A stretch of DNA of 64,000 nt from Polaromonas sp. YR568 (GTDB lineage Bacteria; Pseudomonadota; Gammaproteobacteria; Burkholderiales; Burkholderiaceae_C), in assembly GCF_943371715.1 (NCBI RefSeq), contig NZ_CALRVW010000021.1:2254-66253 (forward strand), read 5' to 3'. Below are positions 25,475 through 41,340 of the stretch, one piece after another. Numbering within the stretch: position 1 is the stretch's first letter; each line of letters opens with the position of its first letter. The notes below the pieces were generated by a model, which saw only the letters and a program-made list of their open reading frames with translations, had not been told where the DNA came from and did no database searches. Made by a program: the position numbers and the translations under genes.

Positions 25475-27610
25475 CTAGCTGGCGAGTCTGGACAGATCGG
25501 CCACGCGGTTCATCGCGTCGTGCAGGCTCTTGAGCAAGCCCTGGCGGTTCAGGCGCAAATCCATCTCTTCAGCGTTGACCATCACGCCGTCGAAAAACGC
25601 ATCGACCGGCGCGCGCAGCGCGGCCAGCGTCTGCAGCGAAGCCGTGTAGTCCCCGGCTTCGAACTGCGTGTTGGCCTGGGGTACCACCTCTTTCATGGCG
25701 GCATAGAGGGCGACTTCAGCGGGCTCCTGGAGCAAGACCTCGCTGACATGGGCATCGACCTCGCCCGCCTTCTTGAGAATGTTGGCGATGCGTTTGTTGG
25801 CGGCGGCCAGGGCCGGCGCTTCGGGCAGCGCGGCGAAGGCGCGCACGGCGGCCAGGCGCTGGGGAATGGTGGACCACAGCCCCAGCTTTTGCGCATAAAT
25901 CGCCGCATCGACCTCGGTGACGGAATAGCCGCTCTCGCGCAAGTAACCCTTCAGGCGCTCGATCAAAAATTCGTCCAGCTCCACGGCCTTGTCCTGCAGC
26001 AATCCGGCGGGGAAAGCCGCGAAAGCCAGTCGCGTGAGCGCGTGAAACTGAACCGGCAGGTCGCGTTCAATCAACATGCGGATCACACCGAGCGCGTGAC
26101 GGCGCAACGCAAACGGATCCTTGTCGCCGGTCGGCAAGTTGCCGATACCGAACATGCCCACCAGGGTTTCGAGTTTGTCGGCCAGCGCGACGATCACACC
26201 GATGGTGTTGCGCGGCAATTCGTCGCCGGCAAAACGCGGCTTGTAGTGGTCCTCGATCGCATCGGCCACCTCGGCACTCAAACCATCGTTGAGCGCGTAA
26301 TAACGCCCCATGATGCCCTGCAGCTCCGGGAACTCGCCGACCATGTCGGTCACCAGGTCGGTCTTGGCCAGCTCGGCGGCGCGCTGCACGTCGGCCACAT
26401 CGGCACCCAGCAGTTGGGCAATCGACTCGGCAATGGCGCGCACGCGTTGGACGCGTTCCCCCTGGGAGCCCAGCTTGTTGTGATAAACAACCTTGTCCAG
26501 CCCCGCGACCCGCGAAGCCAGCGTCTTCTTGCGGTCCTGGTCAAAGAAGAACTTGGCGTCGGCCAGGCGCGGCCGCACCACACGTTCGTTGCCGCCGATC
26601 ACCGCGCTCGCGTCATCCGGGCTGATGTTGCTGACCACCAGAAACTTGTTGGTGAGTTTGCCCGTCGCATCGACCAGCGGGAAATACTTCTGGTTGGCCT
26701 TCATCGTGAGGATCAGGCACTCCTGCGGCACATCGAGGAACTGCGCTTCGAATTCGCACACCAGCACATTGGGGTGCTCGACCAACCCGGTCACCTCGCT
26801 CAGCAGGTCCTCGTCCATCAGCACCTCGTAGCCCGGCCCCAGACGCTCGGCCGCCTGCGCGAGCTGCTGCACGATGGCAAAGCGGCGGTCGTTGAAGCTG
26901 GCAATCACCGCGCCGTCGCCCAGCAGGGTCTGGGCGTACGTATCGGCATCCTCGATCACCACCGGCGACACCTTGGCTTCAAAGCGGTGGCCCTGCGTGG
27001 TGTTGCCCGCCTTCAAACCCAGCGCCGTGACGGGCACCACGGTGCTGCCGTGCAGCGCCACCAGACTGTGCGCGGGACGCACGAAGTTCACACTGCTCCA
27101 GCCGGGCAGCGCGCAGTCGGTCTCGAGCTGGTAAGTCATGACCTTGGGAATCGGAAGTTTCGCAATGGCTTCTTCGAGCGCCTTCTGCAGGCCGACGTCG
27201 AGCGTTGCGCCCGTCACCAGGCTGTCGTAAAACAGCGCCTCGGCCTTGCCGTCGGGCGCGCGCTTGAGGGCGGCCACCGCAGCGGCCGGGTCGGACACGT
27301 CGGCGCCGAGGGCCTGCAGCTTCTTGAGCAGCGCAGGCGTGGCCTTGCCGGAAGCATCCAGCCCCACCTGGACCGGCATGAGTTTTTGCTGAACCGCCTT
27401 GTCGTCGGCCTTGCGCCAGACATGGGTGACATGCGCAGCCAGGCGGCGCGGCGAGGCATACGCCGTCACCACCGAGGTATCGGCGCTGGCCAGACCCTGG
27501 GCCTTGAGCTGCTCGAACAAGACGCCGGCAAAGGCATCGCCCAGCTTTTTGAGCGCCTTGGGCGGCAGCTCTTCCACAAACAGTTCGACCAGAAGGTTTT
27601 GCGTGGTCAT
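25475..27610 (-). CDS. glyS: Glycine-tRNA ligase beta subunit
   Basis: LLVELFVEELPP, EFPELQGIMG, DKDPFALRR. Confidence 0.98.
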   Translation of the reverse strand: MTTQNLLVELFVEELPPKALKKLGDAFAGVLFEQLKAQGLASADTSVVTAYASPRRLAAHVTHVWRKADDKAVQQKLMPVQVGLDASGKATPALLKKLQALGADVSDPAAAVAALKRAPDGKAEALFYDSLVTGATLDVGLQKALEEAIAKLPIPKVMTYQLETDCALPGWSSVNFVRPAHSLVALHGSTVVPVTALGLKAGNTTQGHRFEAKVSPVVIEDADTYAQTLLGDGAVIASFNDRRFAIVQQLAQAAERLGPGYEVLMDEDLLSEVTGLVEHPNVLVCEFEAQFLDVPQECLILTMKANQKYFPLVDATGKLTNKFLVVSNISPDDASAVIGGNERVVRPRLADAKFFFDQDRKKTLASRVAGLDKVVYHNKLGSQGERVQRVRAIAESIAQLLGADVADVQRAAELAKTDLVTDMVGEFPELQGIMGRYYALNDGLSAEVADAIEDHYKPRFAGDELPRNTIGVIVALADKLETLVGMFGIGNLPTGDKDPFALRRHALGVIRMLIERDLPVQFHALTRLAFAAFPAGLLQDKAVELDEFLIERLKGYLRESGYSVTEVDAAIYAQKLGLWSTIPQRLAAVRAFAALPEAPALAAANKRIANILKKAGEVDAHVSEVLLQEPAEVALYAAMKEVVPQANTQFEAGDYTASLQTLAALRAPVDAFFDGVMVNAEEMDLRLNRQGLLKSLHDAMNRVADLSRLAS

Positions 27611-27612
27611 GT

Positions 27613-28518
27613 TTATGCGGCCTTCTTCGTCATCTGTTCCACCCACTCGCGCGGCGCCATCGGGAAGCCCAGGCGCTCTCTGGATTCGTAATAACTCTGC
27701 GCGACGGCACGCGCCAGGTTGCGGATGCGGCCGATGTAGGCGGCACGTTCGGTCACTGAAATCGCGCCGCGCGCGTCCAACAGGTTGAAGCTGTGCGCGG
27801 CCTTGAGCACCTGTTCATAGGCGGGCAGCGCAAGCTGCACTTCGATCAGGTGTTTGGCCTGCTTCTCGTAGGCGGTGAAGGCGGTGAACAGGAAGTCGGC
27901 GTCGCTGTGTTCGAAGTTGTAGGCCGACTGCTCCTTCTCGTTTTGCAGGTAGACGTCGCCGTAACTCATGCTGTCTGTCCACTGCAGGTTGTAGACGTTG
28001 TCCACCCCCTGCAGGTACATGGCCAGGCGCTCCAGGCCATAGGTGATCTCGCCGGTGATGGGCCGGCAGTCGATGCCGCCGACCTGCTGGAAGTAGGTGA
28101 ACTGCGTGACTTCCATGCCGTTGAGCCAGACCTCCCAGCCCAGGCCCCAGGCGCCCAGCGTCGGATTTTCCCAATCGTCTTCCACGAAGCGGATGTCGTT
28201 CTTCTTCAGGTCAAAGCCCAGCGCCTCGAGCGAGCCGAGGTAGAGCTCCAGGATGTTGCTGGGCGCGGGCTTGAGCACGACCTGGTACTGGTAGTAGTGC
28301 TGCAGGCGGTTCGGGTTCTCGCCGTAACGGCCGTCTTTCGGGCGGCGGCTCGGCTGCACGTAGGCGGCCTTCCAGGGCTCGGGGCCCAGCGCTCTCAAAA
28401 ACGTAGCAGTGTGCGACGTCCCGGCGCCCACTTCCATGTCATAGGGCTGCAACAGTGCGCAGCCCTGGGCATCCCAGTAGGACTGGAGCTTCAAGATGAT
28501 TTGCTGAAAGGTCAACAT
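27613..28518 (-). CDS. glyQ: Glycine-tRNA ligase alpha subunit
   Basis: [37 protein letters not shown]. Confidence 0.99.
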
Positions 28519-28572
28519 AAATTGGGTGTGCGGCGACGCAGGGCCGCGGTAAGGGACCGCACGGGCCTGAAC

Positions 28573-28598
28573 CCGCGAAAACCCTTCATTTTACGCGG
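28573..28598. other. attL (26 bp): CCGCGAAAACCC-TT-CATTTTACGCGG
   Basis: Right arm is the inverted complement (11/12) of the left arm of attR; lies at the host/phage border and contains the recombinase stop codon. Confidence 0.8.
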
Positions 28599-29203
28599 CT
28601 AAGGTACGGTCCCAGAACAGGCTTGATAAGTCGCTTCGGGCGATCAGTTCTTGGCTCAAAACGCTCGATTGCTGCATCAATCGTGGTGGAATGAGCATTA
28701 AATTTTCTTGAAAGTGTCGCTTTTTTGAAACGTCCAGTTTTGAATAATTCATAAACTTGGCGATCCTGTTCGGGCGTTAACCGCCGGGGACGGCCAATAA
28801 CAACGCCTCGTTCAATTGCCGCGACCAACCCAGCAATTGACCTCTCCCGAATCATTGATCGCTCCAGCTGGGCCACAGCGCCGAGTATCTGGAGCATGAA
28901 AATCCCCATGGGGGAAGTGGTGTCCAGTGGCTCAGAGAGTGACCTGATGCAAGCGCCAGAATCGGCAATCCGGTCAAGAATGGACAGCAGGTCCTTGAGA
29001 GATCGTGCAACGCGGTCGATTTTGTAAACGACCAGGACATCGCCAGGCGACAACGCAGCAAGGCAGGTTTGCAAGACTGGGCGGCGCCCGATAGAGCTTG
29101 TTTTTTCCTGATAAATCAGTGAAACACCAGCGCGATGAAGTGCATCGATTTGAAGATTTGTCTCTTGTTCGAGCGTGGAAACTCTCGCATACCCAATCAG
29201 CAA
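28586..29203 (-). CDS. Small serine recombinase (resolvase/invertase family, C-terminal HTH)
   Basis: LIGYARVST (catalytic Ser), [32 protein letters not shown] plus HTH; TTG start with AAGGAGG RBS. Confidence 0.96.
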
Positions 29204-29324
29204 ATTGCCTCCTTGATTACTACGTTGGTCTTATGGGAACGCAGTAGTCTAGTGAAGAAAATACAGGCTTTTCATGGCGCGAAACGAGGGCCGACAGCAG
29301 ATTGACGACTGCGATCGCGACGAA

Positions 29325-29408
29325 GGCCGACCCTGCGGGATCGGCTAAGGTGTGCGAGCTGCTTAAGGCGGGGTCAGCTTCGCTTCGCTTACATGGGGCA
29401 GACCCCAT
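29325..29408. other. Intergenic hairpins (candidate packaging signal or minus-strand origin)
   Basis: GGCCGACCCTGCGGGATCGGCT stem and ATGGGG-CAGA-CCCCAT at 29393-29408 in the largest non-coding stretch of the phage. Confidence 0.35.
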
Positions 29409-29453
29409 ACCCCAAAACCAAGGGCACATGGCTGTTCGGAGTAGACTAAGCAT

Positions 29454-29687
29454 ATGGAACTCGAAATCTATAACGCATTTGTCAAGGCCGGCGTGCCAGA
29501 AGCCGAGGCGAAGGCTGCCGTCGAATCGATCAACAAGGAAATCGACAAGCGGTATTCGCTGCATGCTGGTCAGTTGGCGACTAAAAGCGATTTAGCCGAT
29601 GCGAAGGTCGAAATCATCAAGTGGACGGTTGGAAGCATGTTTGCGGCAGTCGGGCTTTTTGCGGCCATTGTGAAGCTGTTGCAGTGA
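29454..29687 (+). CDS. Small coiled-coil protein with C-terminal TM helix (DUF1640/CCDC90-like), phage accessory gene
   Basis: GVPEAEAKA, LATKSDL..K.EIIKW then a hydrophobic tail; followed by a terminator. Confidence 0.75.
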   Translation: MELEIYNAFVKAGVPEAEAKAAVESINKEIDKRYSLHAGQLATKSDLADAKVEIIKWTVGSMFAAVGLFAAIVKLLQ

Positions 29688-29704
29688 TCTAAAACGCTCC
29701 GTAG

Positions 29705-29729
29705 AAAAGGCCCCTTGAGGGCCTTTTTT
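29705..29729. terminator. Bidirectional intrinsic terminator
   Basis: AAAAGGCCC-CTTGA-GGGCCTTTTTT between convergent genes. Confidence 0.85.
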
Positions 29730-29741
29730 ATTGGGGTGCCG

Positions 29742-31076
29742 TCAGGGCATCTTCTGCACCTGGAGCACCAGCAGAATCTGCGTTTTGCTGTTGTCGCTGG
29801 CCTGGCTCTTTGTCCAGGAGGGAAGGAACGCGAAGCCGTTGCTATCGTTCGAGGCCTTGTCCTCATCCAGTCCACCAATCACGATCAAATCGCCGTCGGC
29901 AGCGCCTATGCTGGTCGATATCTCCCGCTTGATGAGCGTCGGGCTGTTGTTGACGCCGGTAGTTGTGGCCACGAAGCTGGAGAGCTGCTGTGAAATGGCC
30001 AAGTCAATGACGCTGTCGCGGATCTGCGGCTTGATATCGAAGATAGAGCCGCTCGGCTTGTATTCGATGGACTGGACAGGGTTGCCGTTCTTGTCGAGCT
30101 GGACCGCGCCGAGGACAGGCACATCAGAGCCAACACTAAACCGAGCCGACGCGCCGCTTTTGACGCGCAGCGAGGGGTTGCTGACGGACTTGAAGCGGGC
30201 ATCGGTGGACAGCGCAGAAAACACGGCGTCGATCTGTGCGTTTTTGAAGCTCACGGTGCTGCCGACCAAGGTCTGACCGAAGGTCAGCCCAAAACGGCCT
30301 TTGAGGATGCTGACAGCGAGATTAAAGGCACTGCCCTCCTTCATGCTGGTGGTGACCTCGTAGACCATGCCTTTGACAAACACCTCAGGAACAGGGGTGT
30401 CCACCTGGGCCAGCAGCTTTTGCAGCAGGGCAATTTCCTTTTCTGTGCCCTCGAAAAGGAAGCTATCGGTCTCGCCCTTGTCGATCTGGGCCGTGGCGCT
30501 AGTGCTGGACTCTTGGCCCTGCCTCTGCCTTTGGGCTGGAGATGGAGGCGCGGTAGCGGCGGGTGCGGCCGTGGGCATGCCCAGGGGGACGGGTTGAATC
30601 AGCTGGCTTGACTGGGTGTCGGCAGCGCGGATATTTCTTTGCACGCTGAATCGGCCAGTTTTGAAGAGAGAGGACGTGATATCCATGAGAGAGCTGACCG
30701 GGCGGTATTTAGCACGGTAGAAAAATATCTCTTTGTCGGGCACTTCCCCAAGTTGGGGAACGTGGGGACGCAGGAACACATACCCGCGCTTTTGTTCGAC
30801 GACGACACCGACACCGGCCAACAGATCGACCATGAAGGTGGACAGCTTGCCCTGGTCAAAATCTCCCTGGAAGTGGACGGTGACTTGCTTAGGCAATTCG
30901 ACCAGGTCAGGGTGCACCGCGAAATTGGTTTTGAGAATGTCGCCATACACAAAATTGACCAGGGTGACGACTGAGATTTTGTCGAAATTGAGGTTGATTG
31001 CTTTGTCGTTGACAGTGGGCGCAGCGGCGGCCAGCGAGGCCAAGAAGAGCCAGAGCAGCGGAAGTAACTTTTTCAT
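29742..31076 (-). CDS. Phage secretin (pIV/GspD-like)
   Basis: Signal peptide, N0/N3 domains, VDTPVPEVFVKG, SNPSLRVKSG.SARFSVGSDVPV. Confidence 0.93.
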   Translation of the reverse strand: MKKLLPLLWLFLASLAAAAPTVNDKAINLNFDKISVVTLVNFVYGDILKTNFAVHPDLVELPKQVTVHFQGDFDQGKLSTFMVDLLAGVGVVVEQKRGYVFLRPHVPQLGEVPDKEIFFYRAKYRPVSSLMDITSSLFKTGRFSVQRNIRAADTQSSQLIQPVPLGMPTAAPAATAPPSPAQRQRQGQESSTSATAQIDKGETDSFLFEGTEKEIALLQKLLAQVDTPVPEVFVKGMVYEVTTSMKEGSAFNLAVSILKGRFGLTFGQTLVGSTVSFKNAQIDAVFSALSTDARFKSVSNPSLRVKSGASARFSVGSDVPVLGAVQLDKNGNPVQSIEYKPSGSIFDIKPQIRDSVIDLAISQQLSSFVATTTGVNNSPTLIKREISTSIGAADGDLIVIGGLDEDKASNDSNGFAFLPSWTKSQASDNSKTQILLVLQVQKMP

Positions 31077-32128
31077 TTTCTGGCATCCGGTAAGAGCGTG
31101 GTGGCGTCGGGCGAGCCGGTGTAGTTGGCAAGCAATTTGCCATCAAGAGAGCCATAGGCCCGCAGGGCGTCGTAATAAAAACCGCGGGGGTTCATGAGGG
31201 TACGGACGGCCTGACCGCGGGTGATGATGACGTAGTGGTCTGGGCCGAAGCTGTAATGACCCACGACGCGCCAATCGGATTCACCGGGCTCAGCGCGGGG
31301 CGGCGCAGCACCAGGCAGGCCAGGAGCTGTCACGGCAGCGCCTGGTGAGGGCTTGGGCGGCGGCGGGTGAAAGAAGCGCCACAGGCCCCACACGGAGAAG
31401 CCGAAGAACAGAAGCATCAAGGGCAGGCCGATGGTGAACATCGCGCCTTTGAGCATATTGGCGCGGTCATCGATGGCGACTTCGTTGCCGCTTTGCCCGC
31501 CGCCCTGGCTGTAGGAGCGGTAGAGCTCGAAAATTTCTTTGTTGTACTTGCGCTGCAGGGAGCGGTAGGGGTTGCGAACCTTGACGCGGGCGTAGATATC
31601 GACGCGGTAGCGTGTGGTCAGGCCGAGCGCCTTGAGCTTGGTCATGACGTAGGTGTTTTCTACGACCGCTTTCAACTTGCGGTCAAGGTCACCAATGTCC
31701 TGGACGACCAGGACGATATCGCAGGTTACCGAGGTTTCAGGATTCATGAAATGCCGGTGCATCCGGAAAAATTCCATGTGCGCAAGGGGCATCTTGCCGC
31801 CGCTGGGCCAGAAGCGCCAGCACTCATCAATCACGACCAGATCGCCGCCCTGCACAACCGGCAGCACATCCGCTGGGAGGCCTTTGCCGTCCTCAGGCGG
31901 GAAGAAAAACGGTTTGGTGACGTCTTCGTGCTTGATCTGGACAATGGTTCCGATCTTGGACGCATCCGCGCCAGATTTGACCAGGTAGGCGGTTATCTCG
32001 GCCACCTGCAAATTGGAAACGTTGGTGACAACGCGGCGACCGGCGATCAGGGCCGGAAGGATAACGTTCTCAACAACTTCGTAGGACTTGCCGGAGCCCA
32101 TCAGACCGGTGTAGGCGTTGATTGCCAT
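31073..32128 (-). CDS. Zot-like assembly ATPase (pI)
   Basis: AYTGLMGSGKS Walker A, LVVIDECWRFW Walker B, HRH, single TM near aa 240. Confidence 0.96.
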   Translation of the reverse strand: MAINAYTGLMGSGKSYEVVENVILPALIAGRRVVTNVSNLQVAEITAYLVKSGADASKIGTIVQIKHEDVTKPFFFPPEDGKGLPADVLPVVQGGDLVVIDECWRFWPSGGKMPLAHMEFFRMHRHFMNPETSVTCDIVLVVQDIGDLDRKLKAVVENTYVMTKLKALGLTTRYRVDIYARVKVRNPYRSLQRKYNKEIFELYRSYSQGGGQSGNEVAIDDRANMLKGAMFTIGLPLMLLFFGFSVWGLWRFFHPPPPKPSPGAAVTAPGLPGAAPPRAEPGESDWRVVGHYSFGPDHYVIITRGQAVRTLMNPRGFYYDALRAYGSLDGKLLANYTGSPDATTLLPDARK

Positions 32129-32130
32129 GG

Positions 32131-32427
32131 TCAGCCGATGACGGGAATGCGGCGGATCAGGAAACGCGCCACATGGGCGGATATGAGCAGCGGCAGGCCG
32201 ATATCGAGGGCGAAGAAGTCCAGGAAGAACCAGACGCCGGAGGGAATGCCGGCAAAGGCGCTGGTCAGACCGCCCGGGCTGATAAAGGCGCCGAGGTACT
32301 CAATGACAAGAGGTGCAAGCTCTGACACCAGGGCGAACACAGCGCCGAGTACAACGGCCTTGATAACCACGTCCTTGATGACCCATGAAGCGATGGACCA
32401 GGCGATGCCAGCAAGAGGTAAAGGCAT
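32131..32427 (-). CDS. Minor coat protein pVI-like (DUF2523-like)
   Basis: 98 aa hydrophobic, ends RFLIRRIPVIG, sits between pIII and pI. Confidence 0.85.
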   Translation of the reverse strand: MPLPLAGIAWSIASWVIKDVVIKAVVLGAVFALVSELAPLVIEYLGAFISPGGLTSAFAGIPSGVWFFLDFFALDIGLPLLISAHVARFLIRRIPVIG

Positions 32428-32429
32428 GG

Positions 32430-33872
32430 TCAGGCTTTCAGGACGATGAACATGGCCGACAGGGTGAAGGCGGCAGTCATGACGGCACGCAGCTGGCCGA
32501 AGTGGTCTTCGACGAGCTGGCAGTGGGCATCAATGACGAAGGTGCGGTTGTTCCAATCGAAGGAGCTTGTCGGGCAACTGGATGAGTGCGCGGGCAGGCT
32601 CCAGCCGAGCAAACCGCCGAAGGGGCCATTTGCGTTTTTGTTCAGGCCTACGCCTTTGATGTCGGCTCCGGTTTTGGCTTGCGGATCGGAAGGGGTGGAC
32701 GAATCGCCCGTGAGAAAGTCCTTGATCTGGGTCAGGAGTCCTTTGTTGGCCTGCTGGGTAGACTCGCAGGCATCGCCGTTTGCGCAACTGCCTCCGCCCG
32801 TTCCAGTGCCACTGCCGGTGCCTGTCCCTGTACCGGTTCCCGTACCGCCGCCAGTGCCTCCACCAGTGCCTCCGATGCTGATAGAAAGGCCTTGGCCGGC
32901 GTTGCTTGATGCACCGTTGCCTAGGGTGTCGGAGATGAGGACATTGTCTGTACCAGGAACGCGTGTACCGGTCTGGTCGTAGGAGGAAACGACGACGCCC
33001 GTCGCGGTGGTTGCAGCGCCGCCGGAGGTGGTGACATTGAGCTCAGCGGATTGCGCGACGGTCACGGAACCGTCAGAGGCGCGGGTCACAACGAGGTTCT
33101 TGCCAGAAGTGCCGGATGTGGTGGGCGCGAGCTGCTGGGACATGGTGTAGCCGCCGTCGGTGATGGTGGCGGTGGGCTTGGGCGCCGGATTGGATGCGGT
33201 GGCCGGGGGCGTGTATTGCCACTCGCCGGTAGCACCGCCAGCCGATGGAGCCCAGCCGCCAGTAGCGCCATCTCCTGCGAATTGACCGCCGCCACCTGGC
33301 ACAAATGATCCGTCCGGGTTGGTGGCAATAGAGGGCGTGGAAGTGTCACCGGGTGCGGGGGATGGCGTGGCATTGCTGGAGGGTTCGAGATTGACCGTGA
33401 GCGGCGGGGAGGATGCGTCTACAGCAGCTTGAGCGGTTGCGGGTGTGGGGGCATCAGCGCCCATCACGAGACTGGCAACTCCCAAATGCAGCGCGGCAGC
33501 AGCGAGCAATGGGACAACCAAACCTCCAGTACCGACAACAGCACCAGCAATCGCACCAGCAGCAAGCACCTTGGCTCCGATCTCTAAAGCCTTCTGCAAA
33601 GGAATAGGGCTTTGGGTTGCAGGCGGGGGATGAGGTGACAGGTTTAAGGATCCAACAGCGCAGGATTCGGGAGCGCCAGAAATGACCCGACAGGCGTAGC
33701 TGGGGTATGCGTCGAGAATTGAAGCGCAGGAATCGGTGCAAATAGTTCCAACGGCAGCAGCGTTGCCGGCGCAAACAAGAACATTACTGCCGCAGTAAAC
33801 ATCTGCGAACGCAGGGCGAGAGCACAAGAACACAACAGCGCAGCAAACGGCGGCTAAACGGCGGGAGGTCAT
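32430..33872 (-). CDS. Adsorption protein pIII-like
   Basis: Signal peptide ending AFA, Cys-rich N domain, Pro/Thr and GT-repeat linkers, C-terminal C..C domain plus TM; start taken as MTSRRL at 33872 (480 aa). Confidence 0.88.
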   Translation of the reverse strand: MTSRRLAAVCCAVVFLCSRPAFADVYCGSNVLVCAGNAAAVGTICTDSCASILDAYPSYACRVISGAPESCAVGSLNLSPHPPPATQSPIPLQKALEIGAKVLAAGAIAGAVVGTGGLVVPLLAAAALHLGVASLVMGADAPTPATAQAAVDASSPPLTVNLEPSSNATPSPAPGDTSTPSIATNPDGSFVPGGGGQFAGDGATGGWAPSAGGATGEWQYTPPATASNPAPKPTATITDGGYTMSQQLAPTTSGTSGKNLVVTRASDGSVTVAQSAELNVTTSGGAATTATGVVVSSYDQTGTRVPGTDNVLISDTLGNGASSNAGQGLSISIGGTGGGTGGGTGTGTGTGTGSGTGTGGGSCANGDACESTQQANKGLLTQIKDFLTGDSSTPSDPQAKTGADIKGVGLNKNANGPFGGLLGWSLPAHSSSCPTSSFDWNNRTFVIDAHCQLVEDHFGQLRAVMTAAFTLSAMFIVLKA

Positions 33873-33958
33873 AGACGCAAACCCGCGATAACGGCGCAGG
33901 CGCACACAACGCCGAATGCAAAAATTGACAGATTCCACAGATCGACGGCTGACGGCAT
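33869..33958 (-). CDS. Tiny minor coat protein (pIX/pVII-like), 29 aa
   Basis: MPSAVDLWNLSIFAFGVVCACAVIAGLRL, single TM, stop overlaps the pIII start. Confidence 0.65.
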   Translation of the reverse strand: MPSAVDLWNLSIFAFGVVCACAVIAGLRL

Positions 33959-33960
33959 GA

Positions 33961-34290
33961 TCAGATCCTTGGGGTACGGATTCGGTTTGACGATGAGCGG
34001 CCAGTGCGGCCCTCGAAGAGGAACAGGGCGCGGCGGGATTCCATGTCGACAAGATCGCCGCTGCGAACTTTTTGCTTGACTTCGCTCAGTGCGGTGAAGT
34101 AGTCGTCTTTGTCCCACCACCTGCCGCCGTAGTAGACCTGACCGCGAACCATGCCGAGGACTTGGCGAACTGCAAAGATGGTGACGAATACGCCCATGAG
34201 AACGACGCCACAGGCGAGGACGGCAACGGTTGTTGTGGAGAAATCGATTGCGGCCAGAATGGGCGCAAAGTTGGGAGCGACGGTAGCCAT
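33961..34290 (-). CDS. Major-coat paralog with ~60-aa C-terminal extension
   Basis: Ungapped 16/46 identity to mature pVIII, shared 14-bp DNA block; AGGA RBS. Confidence 0.75.
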   Translation of the reverse strand: MATVAPNFAPILAAIDFSTTTVAVLACGVVLMGVFVTIFAVRQVLGMVRGQVYYGGRWWDKDDYFTALSEVKQKVRSGDLVDMESRRALFLFEGRTGRSSSNRIRTPRI

Positions 34291-34352
34291 GAGCATTCCT
34301 GGTGAAGGTGAGGACGTGGAGCGCAGCGCTACGCCCCACACCTGGTTAAAAC

Positions 34353-34637
34353 TTAACCGCGCTTGACCATGCCCAGCACGAGCTGGGAAGCCTTCACCAC
34401 GATGTACACAACCATCAACGAGCCGGCGACCAGCAGGAGCGCAGCAATCGCTGTGGAGAAATCGACTTCATTGGTCAAACCGCTCATATCGGGGGGCACG
34501 GCCAGAGCGGGCGTTGCAGCGGTCAGCGCGAGAGAACCGGCACCAACAACAGCGGCCACGCGAACGGATGCGCCGGAGAAGGCGCTGGAGACAGCAGCAA
34601 CGGCAGCAAGGGCGAACACCATAATTTTCTTGAACAT
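34353..34637 (-). CDS. Major coat protein pVIII precursor
   Basis: Leader ending ALA, ~48-aa mature peptide with acidic N-terminus, TM helix and basic C-terminus (VKRG); GAAAGGA RBS. Confidence 0.88.
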   Translation of the reverse strand: MFKKIMVFALAAVAAVSSAFSGASVRVAAVVGAGSLALTAATPALAVPPDMSGLTNEVDFSTAIAALLLVAGSLMVVYIVVKASQLVLGMVKRG

Positions 34638-34711
34638 TTTGCGAGGTCCTTTCGAGACACTAAGTCCGGGAAACTGCCCGGCCAGATTCGTCGATAAACG
34701 AATGTGTTACG

Positions 34712-35086
34712 TCAAAACTCCCTGACGGCTTTGACGACCAACCCAATCACATGGGAGGAAAAATAGAGCAGCATCACGCCTGTGAAACCGAAGGCCCAAA
34801 AGGAACCGAGGGCGGCGTAGTCGTAGGACTCTGCGGGGGTGGTGCTGGCGGTTGTTGTAGGTGGTTCGCAGACCTGCAAGATCGGCCAGACCTGTGAGCT
34901 GTACGACCAGTGGCAATCGTTTTGCGTGGACCCTGCGTAAAAAATCGAACCAGGCGAACCGTTGTTAATTGCCAAATTTAGGCAAGCCTCTGCGGGAGTG
35001 TTGCCCGTCGCGCCGGGAAGGTTGGCGACGATAGAGGCATGCGCGATCTTGTACGGCTTTTGGTTTTCAGTGCAGGTCGGGAGCAT
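34712..35086 (-). CDS. Minor coat protein (pVII-like) with Cys-containing N-terminal domain
   Basis: C-terminal YDYAALGSFWAFGF..TM..KAVREF; position between the ssDNA-binding and coat genes. Confidence 0.65.
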   Translation of the reverse strand: MLPTCTENQKPYKIAHASIVANLPGATGNTPAEACLNLAINNGSPGSIFYAGSTQNDCHWSYSSQVWPILQVCEPPTTTASTTPAESYDYAALGSFWAFGFTGVMLLYFSSHVIGLVVKAVREF

Positions 35087-35159
35087 GGCGCAGTGATTCG
35101 GGTGTTGTTTGCGTGTGAACGAATTCAGTAGCGCCCTTGGGAGGCGCTGGAAAATTCGA

Positions 35160-35501
35160 TCAGGCGGCTTTAAGTTGCGCGGCTTCGGAACGCCCGCGTT
35201 GAGATGCAGACTCCATCGGGCGGGCGCTCATCACGACTTCCTTGCTTTCGGAGCCGTTGGAGACTCGCTCGACCTCGAGCTTTGCCACGAAGGGGTAAGG
35301 CAGGTGCTGCATCGAGAACACCGAAGCGGCATTCGGCATCTTCCACTCCTCGACGCACTCGCCGCCTTTGAAGTTCTTGCCGTCCTCGTTGTTTTTCGTG
35401 GCGAGCTTGACGCGGGTGTAGAGCGTGCCGCTGTCAATTTCTTTGCCGTCGATGTTGCCTTTGAAGGCTTTCATGCCGATAACTTCAACTGTGAGTTCCA
35501 T
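35160..35501 (-). CDS. ssDNA-binding protein (pV-like)
   Basis: 113 aa, beta-rich (VIGMKAFKGNIDG), directly after Rep. Confidence 0.8.
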   Translation of the reverse strand: MELTVEVIGMKAFKGNIDGKEIDSGTLYTRVKLATKNNEDGKNFKGGECVEEWKMPNAASVFSMQHLPYPFVAKLEVERVSNGSESKEVVMSARPMESASQRGRSEAAQLKAA

Positions 35502-36720
35502 TTAATTTCCTTGTGATTGCGGGCAGCTCGTACCATTCAGGTTGAGACGCAGGGCCGAGCCGGATTACCCTGGTTTTCATTTTGAGAGGGACTACGTTGC
35601 TTTTGATGGCTATGTCGCAGCCATACGGGAGCAGCTCCTTTCTGTGACGGAAGAACGTTGCGCGGGACAGCTTCTCAGGCAGCGCATCACCGGCCTGCCA
35701 CATGCGATAGGTGGACAGCAAGTGCTTCGGCAATTCCGTGATTTCCTCGACCTCGGCGGATGCACGCGTGAATACTTCACAGGCTTTTTCAAATTCGATT
35801 TCAAGCTGTTTCATGTCATAGCCTCCGAGGTAGTTGCACCCCAACGCGTGCAGCTTTGTGGACTTGACGGTTAGCTCAGCACGGACCAACCCCACTTCAT
35901 CGCACCAGTCAGCCAGCTTCAACAGGTAGTCATTCGACGGTGGCTGTTTGCGTAGTGACGGATCAACATCGAGCAGTCCAGGAAGGTGCGGAATTGTTCG
36001 CGGTGCCTTGGCTCCTGAGATGTGTTTGCGAAGCTCTGGGCCTTTGCTGTAGACCTTGAAATACATGTTGCGGGAACCACGGCCAAAATCGACGGTTTCG
36101 CCGTCACCAATGGTTTGCGTCTTGATCCGGCTGGCTTGCTGACCTGCCAGAAACCGCATGAAGTGATACGCGTTTTCCTTGGAACCGGTGACGAAGTTTT
36201 GCGTGATGTCCACCCGCGTGACGCGTGCGCCGGTCCACACGCTGCGGGGATTGCCTTTGAAATTCGTCATGAACCGGTCGCCCTCGGTGAACGCTGGCAA
36301 TCCAAGTTCTGAGAGGATGTTGTTGATCTGGCCGATGCACTGGATGAAGCTGTAGCCGAAGACGTTGTCGGGCCGTCCGAACTTGGAAACGTTGCCGTCG
36401 AACCGGACCGTGTCACCGTCACACCGGATAAAAATCGCGGACTCGTGCGAGCCTTCGACCTTGACGCTTTTGAGGGTAGTGGTCACAACTTCACCGTTTT
36501 TGTCGATACGCAGCACAGCGCCGTCGGCAAAGCGTGGAAGGTTTCCGCCGTGTTGCTGGTAGATCGAAATCCAGTCACAGAAGCCGACCATCTGGGCTTT
36601 TGTGGCTGGACTGACTCGCCATTTTTCGGCAAGTCTTGGAAACAATTGCCGGACATCCGGAACGTGGCCGGGAAGCTGGTTTGTCTCACCGGTGAGACTA
36701 GATTGACGTGTTACTAGCAC
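35485..36720 (-). CDS. Rolling-circle replication initiator (gene II/X, Phage_CRI-like)
   Basis: FCDWISI, DGNVSKFGRPDNVFG, VTRVDITQNF, YFKVYSKGPEL, VRAELTV. Confidence 0.9.
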   Translation of the reverse strand: MLVTRQSSLTGETNQLPGHVPDVRQLFPRLAEKWRVSPATKAQMVGFCDWISIYQQHGGNLPRFADGAVLRIDKNGEVVTTTLKSVKVEGSHESAIFIRCDGDTVRFDGNVSKFGRPDNVFGYSFIQCIGQINNILSELGLPAFTEGDRFMTNFKGNPRSVWTGARVTRVDITQNFVTGSKENAYHFMRFLAGQQASRIKTQTIGDGETVDFGRGSRNMYFKVYSKGPELRKHISGAKAPRTIPHLPGLLDVDPSLRKQPPSNDYLLKLADWCDEVGLVRAELTVKSTKLHALGCNYLGGYDMKQLEIEFEKACEVFTRASAEVEEITELPKHLLSTYRMWQAGDALPEKLSRATFFRHRKELLPYGCDIAIKSNVVPLKMKTRVIRLGPASQPEWYELPAITRKLNGTHS

Positions 36721-36727
36721 GTCAATC
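36683..36727. other. Putative double-strand replication origin (twin hairpins)
   Basis: Perfect palindrome GTCTCACCGGTGAGAC (36683-36698) next to a 10-bp stem GATTGACGTG-TTACTAG-CACGTCAATC (36701-36727) at the rep start. Confidence 0.7.
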
Positions 36728-37067
36728 CTTTTTGACCTTCGGCAGCGATCGCGGTTGCCTCCGGCTTCGCTTCGCTCCAGGCGGGGGCAACCGGTACGCA
36801 GCTACAGGTTTTGCCGCCGCATGCGATCACGTTGCGGACTGGAACCGTAATGCGGGTTTGTTCAGGCCAAAGGGTTTCAACTGTCCAGCAGTTGGGGCCA
36901 CCAGGAACGGTATAGGCGTCTTTTATGACGGCGCAGTACACCACCATGCCGCGCTTGGCTAAAACGTGCTGGGCATGCACATGGCGAAGCTGAGCAGCGT
37001 CATAGCAACGCCGGAAGTGTTCTTCGTAGGTATACGGCTCGGATGAAATTGAGGGCTTCAGGCTCAT
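36714..37067 (-). CDS. Phage hypothetical protein, Cys-rich, 117 aa
   Basis: Overlapping start/stop coupling with both neighbours. Confidence 0.65.
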   Translation of the reverse strand: MSLKPSISSEPYTYEEHFRRCYDAAQLRHVHAQHVLAKRGMVVYCAVIKDAYTVPGGPNCWTVETLWPEQTRITVPVRNVIACGGKTCSCVPVAPAWSEAKPEATAIAAEGQKGLTC

Positions 37068-37381
37068 GCGTTCACCTGACCAAATGAGGATTTCCCCATG
37101 TTGAAGAATTGGAGGGATGCGAGTACACCAGGCACAAGGTCCAGCAGATCGAGCTGGTTGACCTGGTGGGGTGTTCCCCGAGTTGGGGAGGGGATCGAGT
37201 GAAAGGAGGTGCAGATCCCGCCGCTAGTGACTTCAACCGAGTACCTGGAGCAGTACGGACGCGGCGGCAGGCCTATGCCGTTTTCTGGCTGGGCGTCGGT
37301 GAGGTACCTACAGTTCCTGCACCCGGTGCGGTCTTTGGGGGAGAGGTAGCCGATTTCGGCGTGGCGAGCGACTAGTCTCAT
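37064..37381 (-). CDS. Phage hypothetical protein, possible 4-Cys zinc finger, 105 aa
   Basis: CRNC..YC..C pattern; ATGA coupling. Confidence 0.6.
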   Translation of the reverse strand: MRLVARHAEIGYLSPKDRTGCRNCRYLTDAQPENGIGLPPRPYCSRYSVEVTSGGICTSFHSIPSPTRGTPHQVNQLDLLDLVPGVLASLQFFNMGKSSFGQVNA

Positions 37382-37518
37382 TTACGCAGCCGCTCCAAGA
37401 AGGGCCAGAGGATGCGGTCACAAAAGACCATGCCAACAATGCATGAAGCGATGCCGACAACGACAAAGCAAAGCGTCAAAAATGCGCCCTGCCAATAGGT
37501 AATGCCGAGAAGACTCAT
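37378..37518 (-). CDS. 46-aa single-TM peptide
   Basis: MSLLGITYWQGAFLTLCFVVVGIASCIVGMVFCDRILWPFLERLRK; ATGA overlaps on both sides. Confidence 0.55.
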   Translation of the reverse strand: MSLLGITYWQGAFLTLCFVVVGIASCIVGMVFCDRILWPFLERLRK

Positions 37519-37646
37519 TCGCAGTGCTCCATGAGCGATGGCTCGACGATGAGAAAATAGATGACTTGGGCGGCAACTGTTAAAGCGAACGAAATGACGC
37601 AAAAACAAGGCAGCAGGACCCACAGAGCAAATTGCATAAAACTCAT
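37515..37646 (-). CDS. 43-aa single-TM peptide
   Basis: MSFMQFALWVLLPCFCVISFALTVAAQVIYFLIVEPSLMEHCE; stop coupled to the next gene; weak RBS. Confidence 0.45.
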   Translation of the reverse strand: MSFMQFALWVLLPCFCVISFALTVAAQVIYFLIVEPSLMEHCE

Positions 37647-37658
37647 CTGGAGGCACCC

Positions 37659-37820
37659 ATGGGGGAGTATTGGCAGCTGGTCGAAACGGTGGTCTGGTTC
37701 GCTTTTTTCGCGCTGGTGGCTTGCGTAGCAGCAGTCTTTGTGACGATCTGGCTGAAATGGGATTCGAACAACGAGACCGAAAGACACCCACCAGAGCGCA
37801 AAAGACGCAGACCGTTCTGA
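37659..37820 (+). CDS. 53-aa single-TM peptide with basic tail
   Basis: GGAGG RBS, TM then ERKRRRPF. Confidence 0.55.
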   Translation: MGEYWQLVETVVWFAFFALVACVAAVFVTIWLKWDSNNETERHPPERKRRRPF

Positions 37821-37946
37821 TGCGAACATTTGCGGTGCCCAGTCAGCCGAATCACTGGTAGAAGACCTAAGCCCAAACAGCCTCGTCGATCGAGAACGCA
37901 AGATCGACCGAAGGTAAGAATAAATTCAACAGAAATTGCAGAACAA

Positions 37947-38159
37947 ATGGACAAACAACTTGCCATGGGAATGGCTTTCGTGGCTTTTTTCTCCATCGCA
38001 TTCGCGGCTATGGGAATGTGGGTTGCGTACCTGGTAATCAAGGAAGCAATCAAAGTCGCTCTGATCGAATCAGGCTTACTTGATGCCCTGGACAAGATTG
38101 CTACCTGGCAGCCAAAAGACGAATCAAAAGGCAAATGGCCTGAGCTGCCCAAGCAGTGA
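37947..38159 (+). CDS. 70-aa single-TM peptide
   Basis: MDKQLAMGMAFVAFFSIAFAAMGMWVAYLVIKEAIK... Confidence 0.55.
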   Translation: MDKQLAMGMAFVAFFSIAFAAMGMWVAYLVIKEAIKVALIESGLLDALDKIATWQPKDESKGKWPELPKQ

Positions 38160-38308
38160 ATGCACGCCCCCAGCCCGAGAGATTCGACAGGTGGCACCCC
38201 ATCGGGCTCCCTTTCGTGGACTGGGGGAGTGCAAGCGGTGTAGCTCATCGCGCCTGCGGGTGAGCCTGTGTACGAGGTTATTGCCATGGAGTGCCATCCG
38301 GTTGAAGT

Positions 38309-38392
38309 CATGCACCTTGCATGACGAACAGAAGCTTAGAAGGCATTCACCTTGCATGTCAAGCGCTTGTTAACATGCATGCACCTTGTAGA
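38309..38392. promoter_or_regulatory. Three operator repeats, consensus CATGCA-CCT-TGCATG
   Basis: 38309-38323 CATGCACCTTGCATG, 38344-38358 CATTCACCTTGCATG, 38378-38392 CATGCACCTTGTAGA. Confidence 0.85.
38333..38362 (-). promoter_or_regulatory. Strong sigma70-type promoter for the phage early operon
   Basis: TTGACA (38362-38357), 18-nt spacer, TAAGCT (38338-38333); operator 2 lies in the spacer. Confidence 0.75.
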
Positions 38393-38412
38393 CAAATCAC
38401 GTAAAGGCTGAT

Positions 38413-38676
38413 ATGCAAAACACACTAGACCTACTGAAAAAGGCAACGGAAGAACAGCCGCTGCCGTACTGGACTAAGAAACTTGAACTCTCGAAAAACA
38501 CGCTTTCGACGTCGAAAATTCGTGGGCACCTGAGCCCTGCAATAGCAGGGCGTTTAGCCGAGTTTCTAGAGGAAGATGTCGAGCACTGGGTAATGGTTGC
38601 CGCGCTTGAATCTGAGCGTGACAGTGCGTGCAAAACGCACCTGCTGAAACGGATGAAAGACCGCGTAAAACGTTGA
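38413..38676 (+). CDS. Phage repressor (HTH, inovirus type)
   Basis: HTH-like N-terminus then LSPAIAGRLAEFL..WVMVAALESERDS; divergent from the main operon across the operators. Confidence 0.8.
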   Translation: MQNTLDLLKKATEEQPLPYWTKKLELSKNTLSTSKIRGHLSPAIAGRLAEFLEEDVEHWVMVAALESERDSACKTHLLKRMKDRVKR

Positions 38677-38686
38677 TTTTACGGAG
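38661..38686. other. attR (26 bp): CCGCGTAAAACG-TT-GATTTACGGAGC
   Basis: Left arm complements the attL right arm; the TT core overlaps the repressor last codon and stop. Confidence 0.8.
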
Positions 38687-38723
38687 CTTTCACCGGGTTA
38701 CCCTGAGACACAAGGAAAGTGTC

Positions 38724-39599
38724 ATGACAACCCAACAATTGATTCTGAGCCTGGTGCTGGCCACCATGGTGTTTTCGGTCGCGCTGGAACTCAGGGTGAG
38801 CGACTTCAGGCGCGTCGCGCAAACACCCAAAGCGGTGGTCTGCGGGCTGATCCCGCAGTTCATCCTGCTGCCGGTGGGCACCTGGCTGGCCACCCTGGCG
38901 CTGGACCTGCCACCCAACGTCGAGGCCGCGATGATCCTGGTGGCGGCCTGCCCCGGCGGCAGCCTGAGCAACGTGATTACCCACCTGGGCCGCGGCAACA
39001 CGGCGCTGTCGGTCAGCGTGTCGGCCGTGGCCAGCGTCATTGCGCTGGTCGCCACACCGTTCAACTTCAGCTGGATGGTGGCGGCCAACCCAGCCACGGC
39101 CGGCTGGCTCAAGACGCTGGACATCGACCCCTCGGGCATCTGGATCAGCCTGTTCCTGCTGCTGGCTCTGCCGATGGCCTTGGGCCTGCTGTTTTCGCAC
39201 CAGTTGCCTGCGCTGACGGCGCGCATCCGCAAGCCACTGGGCAACTTTTCGCTGCTGGCCCTGCTGGCTTTCATCGTGCTGGGGCTGATCAAGGAGCGCC
39301 AGTTGCTGACGCTGGGCCTGCTTCCCATGCTGGCCATCGTGATCGCGCACAACGCCAGCGGACTGTTTTTCGGCTGGGCCACCAGCAAGGCCATGGGTGT
39401 GAGCGAACGCGACCGGCGCGCCGTGATGATCGAGGGCGGCATGCAGAACTCGGGCCTGGCGCTGGGCATCATTGCCGTACAGTTCAACTCGGACCTCGGC
39501 ATGGTCATCATTGCCAGCCTGTGGGGCATGTGGCACATCGTCAGCGGCCTGTCGCTGGCCTACTTCTGGAGGAAAAAAGATGCTCGACTTGCTTATTAA
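38724..39599 (+). CDS. Bile acid:sodium symporter family transporter
   Basis: AACPGGSLSN, EGGMQNSGLAL, multiple TM helices. Confidence 0.92.
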   Translation: MTTQQLILSLVLATMVFSVALELRVSDFRRVAQTPKAVVCGLIPQFILLPVGTWLATLALDLPPNVEAAMILVAACPGGSLSNVITHLGRGNTALSVSVSAVASVIALVATPFNFSWMVAANPATAGWLKTLDIDPSGIWISLFLLLALPMALGLLFSHQLPALTARIRKPLGNFSLLALLAFIVLGLIKERQLLTLGLLPMLAIVIAHNASGLFFGWATSKAMGVSERDRRAVMIEGGMQNSGLALGIIAVQFNSDLGMVIIASLWGMWHIVSGLSLAYFWRKKDARLAY

Positions 39600-41340
39600 G
39601 GGCGGCACCGTCGTCGACGGCAGCGGCGCTGCGCCCTTTGTGGCCGACGTCGGCGTGCAGGACGGCCGCATCGTGGCCATCGGCCCGATCACCGCGGCGG
39701 CGCGCGACACCGTGGACGCCAGCGGTGCCTGGGTCACACCGGGTTTTGTGGACATCCACACCCACTACGACGGCCAGGCCACCTGGGACGAAACCTTCAG
39801 CCCCAGCATCCACCATGGCGTGACGACCGTGGTCATGGGCAACTGCGGCGTCGGCTTCGCGCCGCTGCGGCCGGGCAGCGAGGACCGCCTGATCAAGCTG
39901 ATGGAGTGCGTGGAAGACATCCCTGGCGTGGCGCTGACCGAAGGCGTGAAATTTTCATGGGAGAGTTTTGGCGACTACCTGAACGCACTCGACGCCATGC
40001 CGCACAGCCTGGACTTCCTGGCCATGGTGCCGCACGACCCGCTGCGCATGCTGGTGATGGGCGAACGCGCCGAGGCACGCGAAGCCGCCAGCGCGCAGGA
40101 CATTGCTGCCATGCGCGAGCACCTGCGCACCGCGCTGGCGGCCGGGGCGGTGGGTTTTTCCACCGGCCGCTCGGACAACCACCGCACGGCCGAGGGGCAC
40201 GACACACCAGCCTCGATTGCCAGCGCGGCCGAGCTGACCGGCATCGCCGCGGCCTTCGAAGGCCTGAGCCACGGCGTGGTGCAGGTCGTCAGCGATTTCG
40301 ACCTGATGCAGGGACCGCAGAACTTCGATGCCGAGTTCGACCTGGTCGAGCAGCTGGCGGCGGCCAGCGGACGGCCGCTGTCGATGAGCTGGCTGCAGCG
40401 CGATCCGGGCGGCGAGCAATACCTGGCCATGCAGGCCCGCGTGGAAGCGGCCGTGGCGCGCGGGCTGCCGCTGTACCTGCAGACCGCGGCGCGCGGCATT
40501 GGCGTCATCAACGGGCTGGACGCGAGTTTTCACCCTTTCATGGGTTTTCCCGGCTACAAGGAAATTGCTACGCTTTCAGTAGCTGACCGCGCAGCCGCCA
40601 TGCGGGAACCAGCCCGAAAAGCCCGCATCCTGGGCGAGAAGTCGGAGCGCCTGGCGGGCGATGGCACACCGATTCCGCCGCTGGTGGACATGCTGCTGGC
40701 GCGCATTGAAATGATCGCCGGGCGCATGTTCCCGCTGGACGCCACGCTCAACTATGAACCCAACGTGATGCAGAGTTTTCTGGTGCGCGCCAAACAGCGG
40801 GGCATCACCGCGCTGGAGGCGCTGTACGACTACTTCAGCGAAGGCGACGGCAGCCAGTTGGTCTACTTCCCGATCTTCAACTACAACCAGGGCTCGCTCG
40901 ACACCGTGCGCCAGATGCTGGGCCACCCGCGCGCGCTGTTCGGCCTCGGCGACGCCGGCGCGCATGTGGGTACCGTCTGCGACGCGAGTTTTTCCACCTT
41001 CATGCTCACGCACTGGGTGCAGGGCCGGGCGCAGGACCGCCTGCCGCTGGAGCAGGCGGTGGAAATGATGAGCTCGCGCAATGCGCGCTACCTGGGGCTG
41101 AGCGACCGCGGTCGGCTGGCGGTCGGCCTGCGGGCCGACATCAACGTCATCGACCCCTTGCGATTGAGCGTCGGGCTGCCGCAGCTGGTGCGCGACCTGC
41201 CCGCCGGCGGCAAACGTTTCCTGCAGAAGGCGCAGGGTTACATCGGCACCTGGGTCGCAGGCCAGTGTGTGGCCCGCGAAGGTGAAGTCACGGCCGCGCG
41301 GCCGGGCCGGCTCGTGCGTTCAGGCCAGGGCGCGGCCTGA
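39580..41340 (+). CDS. Amidohydrolase (N-acyl-D-amino-acid deacylase family)
   Basis: [41 protein letters not shown]. Confidence 0.9.

Follow-up and report, generated by a model that had tools for sequence, protein, structure and literature searches.

A Polaromonas inovirus inserted upstream of glyQ at a symmetric 26-bp site, with a Hin/Gin-type serine recombinase as its putative integrase

DNA invertases such as Hin, Gin and Cin are small serine recombinases acting at 26-bp hix or gix sites, in which two 12-bp half-sites, each with an A-tract on its inner side, face each other in inverted orientation across a 2-bp core. As a rule, accessory sites and enhancers lock small serine recombinases into inversion or resolution within one DNA molecule. 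The Ralstonia inoviruses phiRSM1, phiRSM3 and phiRs551 encode a serine recombinase of about 200 amino acids (aa), of resolvase/invertase size (ORF14 or ORF13, Int). The phiRSM Int is reported to drive integration as well as excision, using a 13-bp core that is the end of a tRNA-Ser gene, and deletion of the int gene or of the phage attachment site attP abolishes integration of Rs551/RSM (PMC5608472, PMC4471427, PMC3816273). In large serine integrases, attP and the bacterial site attB differ in structure and a recombination directionality factor (RDF) sets directionality (PMC11722253). Here we analyse a 64,000-nucleotide (nt) stretch of the Polaromonas sp. YR568 genome (contig NZ_CALRVW010000021.1, positions 2,254 to 66,253; hereafter the window, whose coordinates we use throughout). 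It carries a 10,088-bp inovirus between glyQ and a symporter gene, and we estimate a probability of roughly 0.85 that the phage was integrated there by its own 205-aa recombinase of the Hin/Gin type.

Attachment sites, crossover and the empty target

The two junctions, read directly from the sequence, are as follows:

28573-28598, + strand: attL; host arm 28573-28584 CCGCGAAAACCC, core TT 28585-28586, phage arm 28587-28598 CATTTTACGCGG
38661-38686, + strand: attR; phage arm 38661-38672 CCGCGTAAAACG, core TT 38673-38674, host arm 38675-38686 GATTTTACGGAG

From TT core to TT core the insert measures 10,088 bp, in agreement with the junctions and length given in a first-pass annotation of the window. 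Joining the inner halves rebuilds attP as CCGCGTAAAACG-TT-CATTTTACGCGG, with 12-bp arms that match in inverted orientation at 11/12 positions, and joining the outer halves rebuilds attB as CCGCGAAAACCC-TT-GATTTTACGGAG. The first-pass annotation had attP right and wrote attB as GATTTACGGAGC, losing one T from the right arm, which was its only error. On either side of TT, the neighbouring base is C at the attL junction and G at the attR junction. Because the bases flanking TT differ between the two junctions, the exchange is confined to the 2-bp TT.

This 2-bp interval describes the crossover and not the total similarity of the sites, since attB and attP are alike at 20 of 26 positions; the earlier description of "only a 2-bp shared core" therefore stands for the crossover interval and not for the sites as a whole. 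All four half-sites (CCGCGTAAAACG, CCGCGTAAAATG, CCGCGAAAACCC and CTCCGTAAAATC) resemble each other, with the consensus CCGCGTAAAAyG in two 12-bp copies around the 2-bp core. Inverted arms matching at 11/12 positions or better occur in 130 of the 4.09 million 26-mers of the whole genome (3.2e-5), and a palindrome centred exactly on the junction is no chance event. Matches of 23/26 to attP or attB in this genome comprise attL and attR only. Between attL and attR themselves, 20 of 26 positions are identical and the longest identical run is 8 bp, lying one base off the core. A large survey of inoviruses called attachment (att) sites by a direct repeat of at least 10 bp (PMC6813254); as the longest run here falls short of that rule, finders based on direct repeats would miss such prophages, as the first-pass annotation had remarked.

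We searched with the glyQ-side flank for relatives carrying an empty site. The window's left and right flanks abut in three other Polaromonas species (G007, with 97% flank identity, G022 and G008), all of which read an uninterrupted CCGCGAAAACCC-TT-GATTTTACGGAG between glyQ and the SBF-family symporter gene. The junction predicted for phage-free relatives is thus found, identical, in three congeners. The exact attB 26-mer is present in 26 species-representative contigs, nearly all of them from Polaromonas, and always lies between glyQ and the symporter gene. Three contigs with the exact glyQ-attB-symporter region (L056, L060 and L077) are labelled as metagenome-assembled genomes of Asaia bogorensis, Kapabacteria and Archangium; these are probably mis-binned Polaromonas contigs. 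None of the 203 other species genomes of the genus contains the prophage attR, and the prophage is single-copy in its own genome.

The recombinase and its phage

The insert carries these genes, listed from the left junction:

28586..29203, - strand: small serine recombinase, 205 aa, putative integrase (PF00239, E-value 2e-38; phrog_125; Gin structure 4m6f; AF2 model; fold matches)
29220..29564, - strand: 114-aa open reading frame (ORF) of unknown function just upstream of the recombinase gene; no family match
29742..31076, - strand: pIV-like secretin (PF00263, E-value 1e-21)
31073..32128, - strand: pI/Zot assembly ATPase (PF05707, E-value 2e-29)
32131..32427, - strand: pVI-like minor coat protein, DUF2523 (PF10734, at the gathering threshold)
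32430..34052, - strand: 540-aa ORF in the position of pIII (adsorption protein); assigned by position, no family match
34353..34637, - strand: virion structural (major coat-like) protein (phrog_2186, E-value 1e-12)
35160..35501, - strand: 113-aa protein in the position of pV (single-stranded DNA-binding); phrog_4994; 91% identical in the phage of genome G103 described below
35485..36720, - strand: pII rolling-circle replication initiator, G2P (PF05144 and PF05155)
38413..38676, + strand: helix-turn-helix (HTH) DNA-binding protein in the repressor position, 87 aa (phrog_31301, E-value 2e-25)

The recombinase gene abuts the site, and its TGA stop codon overlaps the core TT of attL. In the protein, Ser9, a GRPR linker and a three-helix HTH (residues 144-182) precede a flexible tail (183-205), and residues S9, R7, D63, R64 and R67 are invariant in 19 homologues. 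Among solved structures Gin (4m6f) is the best match (E-value 5e-36, about 44% identity), followed by gamma-delta resolvase at 2e-23, so that in sequence the protein lies nearer the invertases than the resolvases; the phrog_125 profile, annotated "DNA invertase", matches at 2e-54. An AF2 model with a mean predicted local distance difference test (pLDDT) score of 83 shows a catalytic domain, helix E at residues 98-131, the GRPR linker and HTH helices at 144-182, and Foldseek returned full-length matches of this model to 1gdt, 5cy1, 2r0q and 4m6f, a set spanning gamma-delta/Tn3 resolvase and the Gin-DNA complex. The assignment of the C-terminal HTH draws on the PHROG profile, the alignment with Rs551 and the AF2 model. 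Overall, the protein combines the PF00239 domain and catalytic residues with the helix E, linker and HTH of a small serine recombinase, and the proximity to Gin together with the resolvase/Gin-like fold supports its earlier classification as invertase-type.

With Hin, Gin and Cin the protein shares a serine near residue 9-10, the GRPR linker and the C-terminal three-helix HTH, and its att sites share the 26-bp 12-2-12 layout generally known for hix and gix. Those enzymes invert DNA, whereas the event here is an intermolecular integration: attL and attR stand in direct orientation and flank the inserted phage, and no second inverted site or enhancer was identified. Like phiC31, Bxb1 and SPbeta, the large serine integrases, this system joins phage to chromosome by a crossover of 2 bp whose central dinucleotide is not palindromic. 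Large serine integrases, however, run to 450-600 aa and contain recombinase, zinc-ribbon and coiled-coil domains, whereas the protein found here has 205 aa and lacks those domains; in addition, attP, attB, attL and attR are all alike here, unlike the sites of that group.

The closest phage homologues are the Ralstonia Rs551/RSM integrases (49% identity over 187 aa to Rs551 ORF13), which bears out an earlier comparison with the RSM phages, their small serine recombinase and their tRNA target (PMC5608472, PMC4471427). As in the phiRSM phages, an inovirus encodes a serine recombinase of this size, attP adjoins int and a repressor-type gene, and no RDF is known. The target differs: phiRSM inserts at the 3′ end of a tRNA-Ser gene with a 13-bp identical core (TGGCGGAGAGGGT), whereas the phage studied here occupies an intergenic element upstream of glyQ with a 2-bp crossover identity. 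The attP of Rs551 lies upstream of int and is not palindromic, in contrast to the 11/12 palindrome here, which overlaps the stop codons of the int and HTH genes. The Rs551 phage backbone is unrelated to that of this phage, and the helix-E signature, Q105...L113 here, has H and F at those positions in Rs551. We conclude that the element belongs with the phiRSM-type inoviruses that carry small serine integrases, and differs from them in target class, site architecture and crossover identity.

Helix E may also offer a lead on how the invertase lock is escaped. Changing Phe105 of Hin to Leu, Ile, Met or Val makes Hin independent of Fis (PMC4513852). The corresponding residue is Met (Met103) in this recombinase and M, V, L, I or T across its family. 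This lead is suggestive only, because the next residue is Leu (Leu104) where Hin requires Phe, and because resolvases too have Val at the first position.

Around the recombinase, the insert contains what is expected of a member of the Inoviridae sensu lato (Tubulavirales): PF05707, PF05144/PF05155 and phrog_2186 matches in a 10,088-bp insert. The secretin, Zot/pI, DUF2523/pVI, coat and G2P replication proteins uphold its earlier identification as an inovirus. The leftward phage genes end with the recombinase gene, and the rightward HTH gene converges on it across the att site. All listed ORFs are open and the core genes are full length. Family and PHROG profile matches revealed no tyrosine recombinase among the phage ORFs. 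GC content is 54-61% in the prophage and 63-69% in the flanks. The GC skew of the + strand is steadily positive, at 0.03-0.15, across 29000-38999 and near zero in the flanks; the structural genes all lie on the - strand. A megablast search of the whole prophage against deposited phages gave no match, and its backbone is at most 28% (pII) and 39% (pI) identical to that of any deposited phage. The insert is an intact inovirus of a previously undescribed lineage, and probably one of recent acquisition, the latter because the closest relative, with 97% flank identity, does not carry it. The 114-aa ORF beside the recombinase gene has no tblastn match in the related elements L052-L055, and is thus not conserved there.

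Integration also alters the HTH gene. Its product is 87 aa long in the prophage, where the junction supplies a TGA stop; translated across the junction of the circle, in which 38413-38676 is joined to 28587-28711, it would be 128 aa, with an extension antisense to the 3′ end of the recombinase gene. In phiRSS0, ORF13 likewise changes from 156 to 130 aa on integration (PMC3816273). Both phiRSS0 and XacF1 use XerCD to integrate at dif, and their attP lies within a regulator gene. They resemble this phage in that integration alters the C-terminus of a repressor-type protein, and differ from it in recombinase and target site. We considered a stop codon created by integration as a general switch and rejected it: the phage of G103 ends its HTH gene within its own phage arm, so truncation of the HTH protein is not general in the clade.

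The glyQ target and related elements at other genes

The genes flanking the insertion are:

25475..27646, - strand: glyS, glycyl-tRNA synthetase beta subunit, second gene of the host operon (PF02092, E-value 1e-184)
27613..28518, - strand: glyQ, glycyl-tRNA synthetase alpha subunit (PF02091, E-value 1e-150); ATG 66 nt from the crossover TT
38724..39599, + strand: host transporter of the SBF family (bile acid:sodium symporter family), divergent from glyQ (PF01758, E-value 3e-32); ATG 49 nt from the core

The insertion splits the 117-bp intergenic region between the divergent glyQ and symporter genes. A tRNA scan found no tRNA within 26000-41000, and an Rfam scan around the site found no element, so the target is neither a tRNA nor a known RNA element; the first-pass annotation had likewise proposed a non-tRNA target. 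We compared the region upstream of glyQ in 19 species, picked via glyQ and not via attB. The attB half-site CGTAAAAT is found there in most of them, whatever gene lies beyond, and several species natively carry CCGCGTAAAATG, which is the reverse complement of the phage right arm. On the - strand the phage arm of attL reads CCGCGTAAAATG, with TAAAAT at 28593-28588, and after integration the strand leading toward glyQ reads CCGCGTAAAATG-AA-GGGTTTTCGCGG. By this comparison, attL rebuilds a native-looking upstream element of the essential glyQS operon, because the phage arm that replaces the host arm carries the same CGTAAAAT. The empty site has TAAAAT as well, so the phage preserves this motif rather than adding it. 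The site may be the glyQ promoter, with TAAAAT as its -10 element.

Genome-wide, the motif C[CG]GTAAAAT[CG] is not enriched (10 copies found, 11 expected), and most copies lie just upstream of gene starts. On contig C42 of the same genome (positions 6047-6072, outside the window) a look-alike, TCGGGAAAACCCCTGATTTTACGGGA, matches attB at 21/26 positions just upstream of a gene whose N-terminal sequence looked, by eye, like that of transketolase (tkt). The look-alike may serve as a secondary site, or may simply be one more promoter built in this way. Across the genus (L002-L020) an imperfect palindrome of the form CGTAAAAT-N4-6-GGTTT-N-GCG lies at a variable distance, about 60-130 nt, before the glyQ ATG. 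After it comes a leader that is rich in GC, prone to hairpins and marked by 20-bp indels; the element may represent a promoter plus leader, or an operator.

Homologues of the recombinase lie in other elements. IMG/VR holds 44 loci with homologues that are 50-66% identical, most of them on contigs of 7-8 kb; many of these contigs end at the recombinase stop codon or no more than 30 bp from it, and some of the loci adjoin a copy of the tRNA-Ser 3′ end. In one (L099, 292-430 and 8704-8770), the stretch past the recombinase stop repeats the tRNA-Ser(GCT) 3′ end together with 45 bp or more of the sequence beyond it; this repeat is much longer than a normal att core. A C-terminal motif, PVLGxxL, marks further Polaromonas elements, which occupy two other chromosomal sites:

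L052 (G103:C99), 640-690 and 10640-10680: junctions of the G103 inovirus; empty site at C7 of the window's own genome (G000), near 27060
L054, 9150-9210 and 15440-15500; L055, 1620-1660 and 10710-10760; L053, 6840-6880: junctions of the elements inserted in a Metallophos-family gene; empty site at G000 C1:196181-196206

The G103 inovirus encodes a recombinase 62% identical and a pII 80% identical to those of this phage, and carries a Zot gene. It lies upstream of hisZ at the attB CCCGGTAAAATC-CT-GTTTTTAACAGC, with a partial ORF resembling the end of hflC (by eye) as its other neighbour. Its empty site was read from the window's own genome by aligning the contig ends, which leaves an 11-bp identity block whose symmetric centre is CT. 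A search of the genus with the recombinase-proximal flank gave no empty site; this flank is phage cargo. About 2 kb of additional sequence lies between attL and the recombinase gene of this inovirus, with ORFs at 1371-1880 and 1871-2617 that have no family matches.

Elements in G092, G068 and G165, whose recombinases are 53-55% identical, interrupt a Metallophos-family gene, which we read as a putative apaH, within its first codons. Their site is ATGkCACTTTAC-TT-GATyGGCGACCT, and the empty site reads ATGGCACTTTAC TT GATTGGCGACCT; when aligned to it, the two flanks share exactly 26 bp, with TACTT as the identity block. The arm of the element supplies a new GTG start and four codons. We identified a rolling-circle Rep, a ParB-N protein, an HTH protein and the recombinase in these elements. 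We dropped their classification as inoviruses, since no Zot was found among the ORFs tested, and they may not be inoviruses; their attP has no match in IMG/VR. Taken together, these alignments show that a 12-2-12 layout with exchange at or near its centre recurs at hisZ and apaH. Moreover, the recognition helix co-varies with the half-site in the three cases: the helices of this phage (12 residues) and of the G103 phage (SNTTIDSAIHKF) go with GTAAAA half-sites, and the apaH-type helix (SESTVTRAFVAR) is paired with TGTCAC half-sites. When related loci and a circular IMG/VR contig (L093) were scanned blindly for 12-2-12 palindromes, GC-rich palindromes were too many for the result to be informative.

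Proposed reaction, alternatives and significance

The protein family, the symmetry of the sites and an exchange limited to 2 bp all point to a standard serine recombinase reaction. In this model, recombinase dimers would bind two 26-bp sites, attP in the replicative form and the chromosomal attB, with the C-terminal HTH reading the outer bases of each half-site and the GRPR arm the A-tract. The dimers would then synapse into a tetramer, make double-strand cuts at TT with a 2-nt stagger, and religate after one half of the complex has turned by 180 degrees, and the asymmetric TT/AA core would fix the orientation of the insert. Because all four half-sites are alike, attL and attR should themselves be substrates and the reaction intrinsically reversible; the phiRSM Int reaction is reported to be reversible, matching this expectation (PMC5608472, PMC4471427, PMC3816273). 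Net direction would probably be set by the timing of recombinase expression. The recombinase gene is the last of a long leftward operon (putative promoter region 38309-38412) facing the repressor-like HTH gene, whose product would silence that operon; integrated copies would be frozen in place once silenced, and circles that do not replicate would be lost.

Several points weigh against integration by the phage's own enzyme as we describe it. Catalysis by this particular recombinase, like continued excision, is a step that we infer, and the anatomy of the site is not transferable from the proven system, since the Rs551 attP lies upstream of int and is non-palindromic. Pfam did not detect the C-terminal HTH. 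The centres of the hisZ and apaH sites are narrowed only as far as their 11-bp and 5-bp identity blocks. Neither the exact attP 26-mer, in IMG/VR or JGI metagenome contigs, nor its 22-mer core, in metagenome contigs, found a match. Consensus scans of the empty site, attL and attR found no sigma-70 promoter; because these scans were null, it is conservation that the promoter label rests on. Of the "divergent housekeeping promoter" named by the first-pass annotation, the position between the divergent glyQ and symporter genes therefore holds, and the promoter itself stays a matter of inference.

We weighed three other explanations. Most integrating inoviruses use XerCD at dif or tyrosine integrases (PMC4471427), and host XerCD or another tyrosine recombinase might have integrated this phage too, leaving the phage recombinase to serve some other purpose. 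We regard this as highly improbable: the site between glyQ and the transporter gene is neither dif nor a tRNA, profile matches showed no tyrosine recombinase among the phage ORFs, and a 12-2-12 palindrome abuts the serine recombinase gene. Tyrosine recombinases need a matching overlap of 6-8 bp, and the crossover identity here is 2 bp only, with mismatches on either side. Alternatively, the recombinase could act mainly as an invertase or as a resolvase of replicative-form multimers, so that the insertion would be a rare side reaction at a look-alike site. The relation of the protein to DNA invertases, the nearly perfect hix-like palindrome of attP and the presence of this phage at this site in just 1 of 204 species genomes would fit such a role. 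We nevertheless consider it quite unlikely, as homologues in related elements are found at the ends of prophages, in three different places on the chromosome and with matching geometry, dozens of inovirus-size IMG/VR contigs end at or near the recombinase gene, and the Rs551/RSM homologue is a proven integrase. The phage arms, moreover, mimic host sequence (CGTAAAAT at glyQ; the GTG start and four codons at apaH), which argues for selection for integration.

The prophage might instead be a fixed, immobile remnant, with real junctions and a dead system. The junction of the free form was not found in public contigs, as this explanation would have it, yet the core genes are all open and full length, the catalytic residues are intact, both att sites are undamaged, and the phage is missing from the closest relative, whose flanks are 97% identical, so that acquisition is recent; we therefore judge it unlikely. 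Our preferred explanation remains that the inovirus integrated by means of its own recombinase.

A broader proposal, which we put forward tentatively and at somewhat less than even odds, is that this phage represents a natural family of Hin/Gin-like integrases of about 200 aa that are enhancer-independent and reversible and act on minimal symmetric 26-bp sites. Within such a family, changes in the recognition helix of the HTH may re-aim the enzyme among housekeeping promoters or gene starts (glyQ, hisZ and apaH). The phage arms may have evolved to copy the host half-site, either the -10-like CGTAAAAT or a start with its first codons, and so keep essential genes expressed. Direction may be controlled through repressor-regulated expression of the integrase, dispensing with an RDF; in this phage the shortening of the repressor-type protein on integration, from 128 to 87 aa, perhaps contributes as well.

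A natural small serine recombinase that integrates at a bare 26-bp site raises the question of how the lock on this enzyme class is released, and a second question of how direction is controlled without the extra domains and RDFs of the large serine integrases. The phiRSM system reportedly raised the question of lock and direction in 2011, and to our knowledge the anatomy of its site was never resolved beyond the 13-bp core. The glyQ locus is a cleaner case than phiRSM, with its exchange located to 2 bp, an almost perfectly palindromic attP, three related specificities to compare and a helix-E residue of the type linked to Fis independence. What is new here is the conservation of CGTAAAAT at glyQ, the native-like attL and the same 12-2-12 geometry at hisZ and apaH, which together open a small comparative series within one genus. 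In practical terms, att finders that require a direct repeat of at least 10 bp miss such prophages, and compact integrases with short sites are of interest as tools. For the biology of the phage, insertion beside an essential operon whose upstream element it rebuilds amounts to the phage paying for its landing site.

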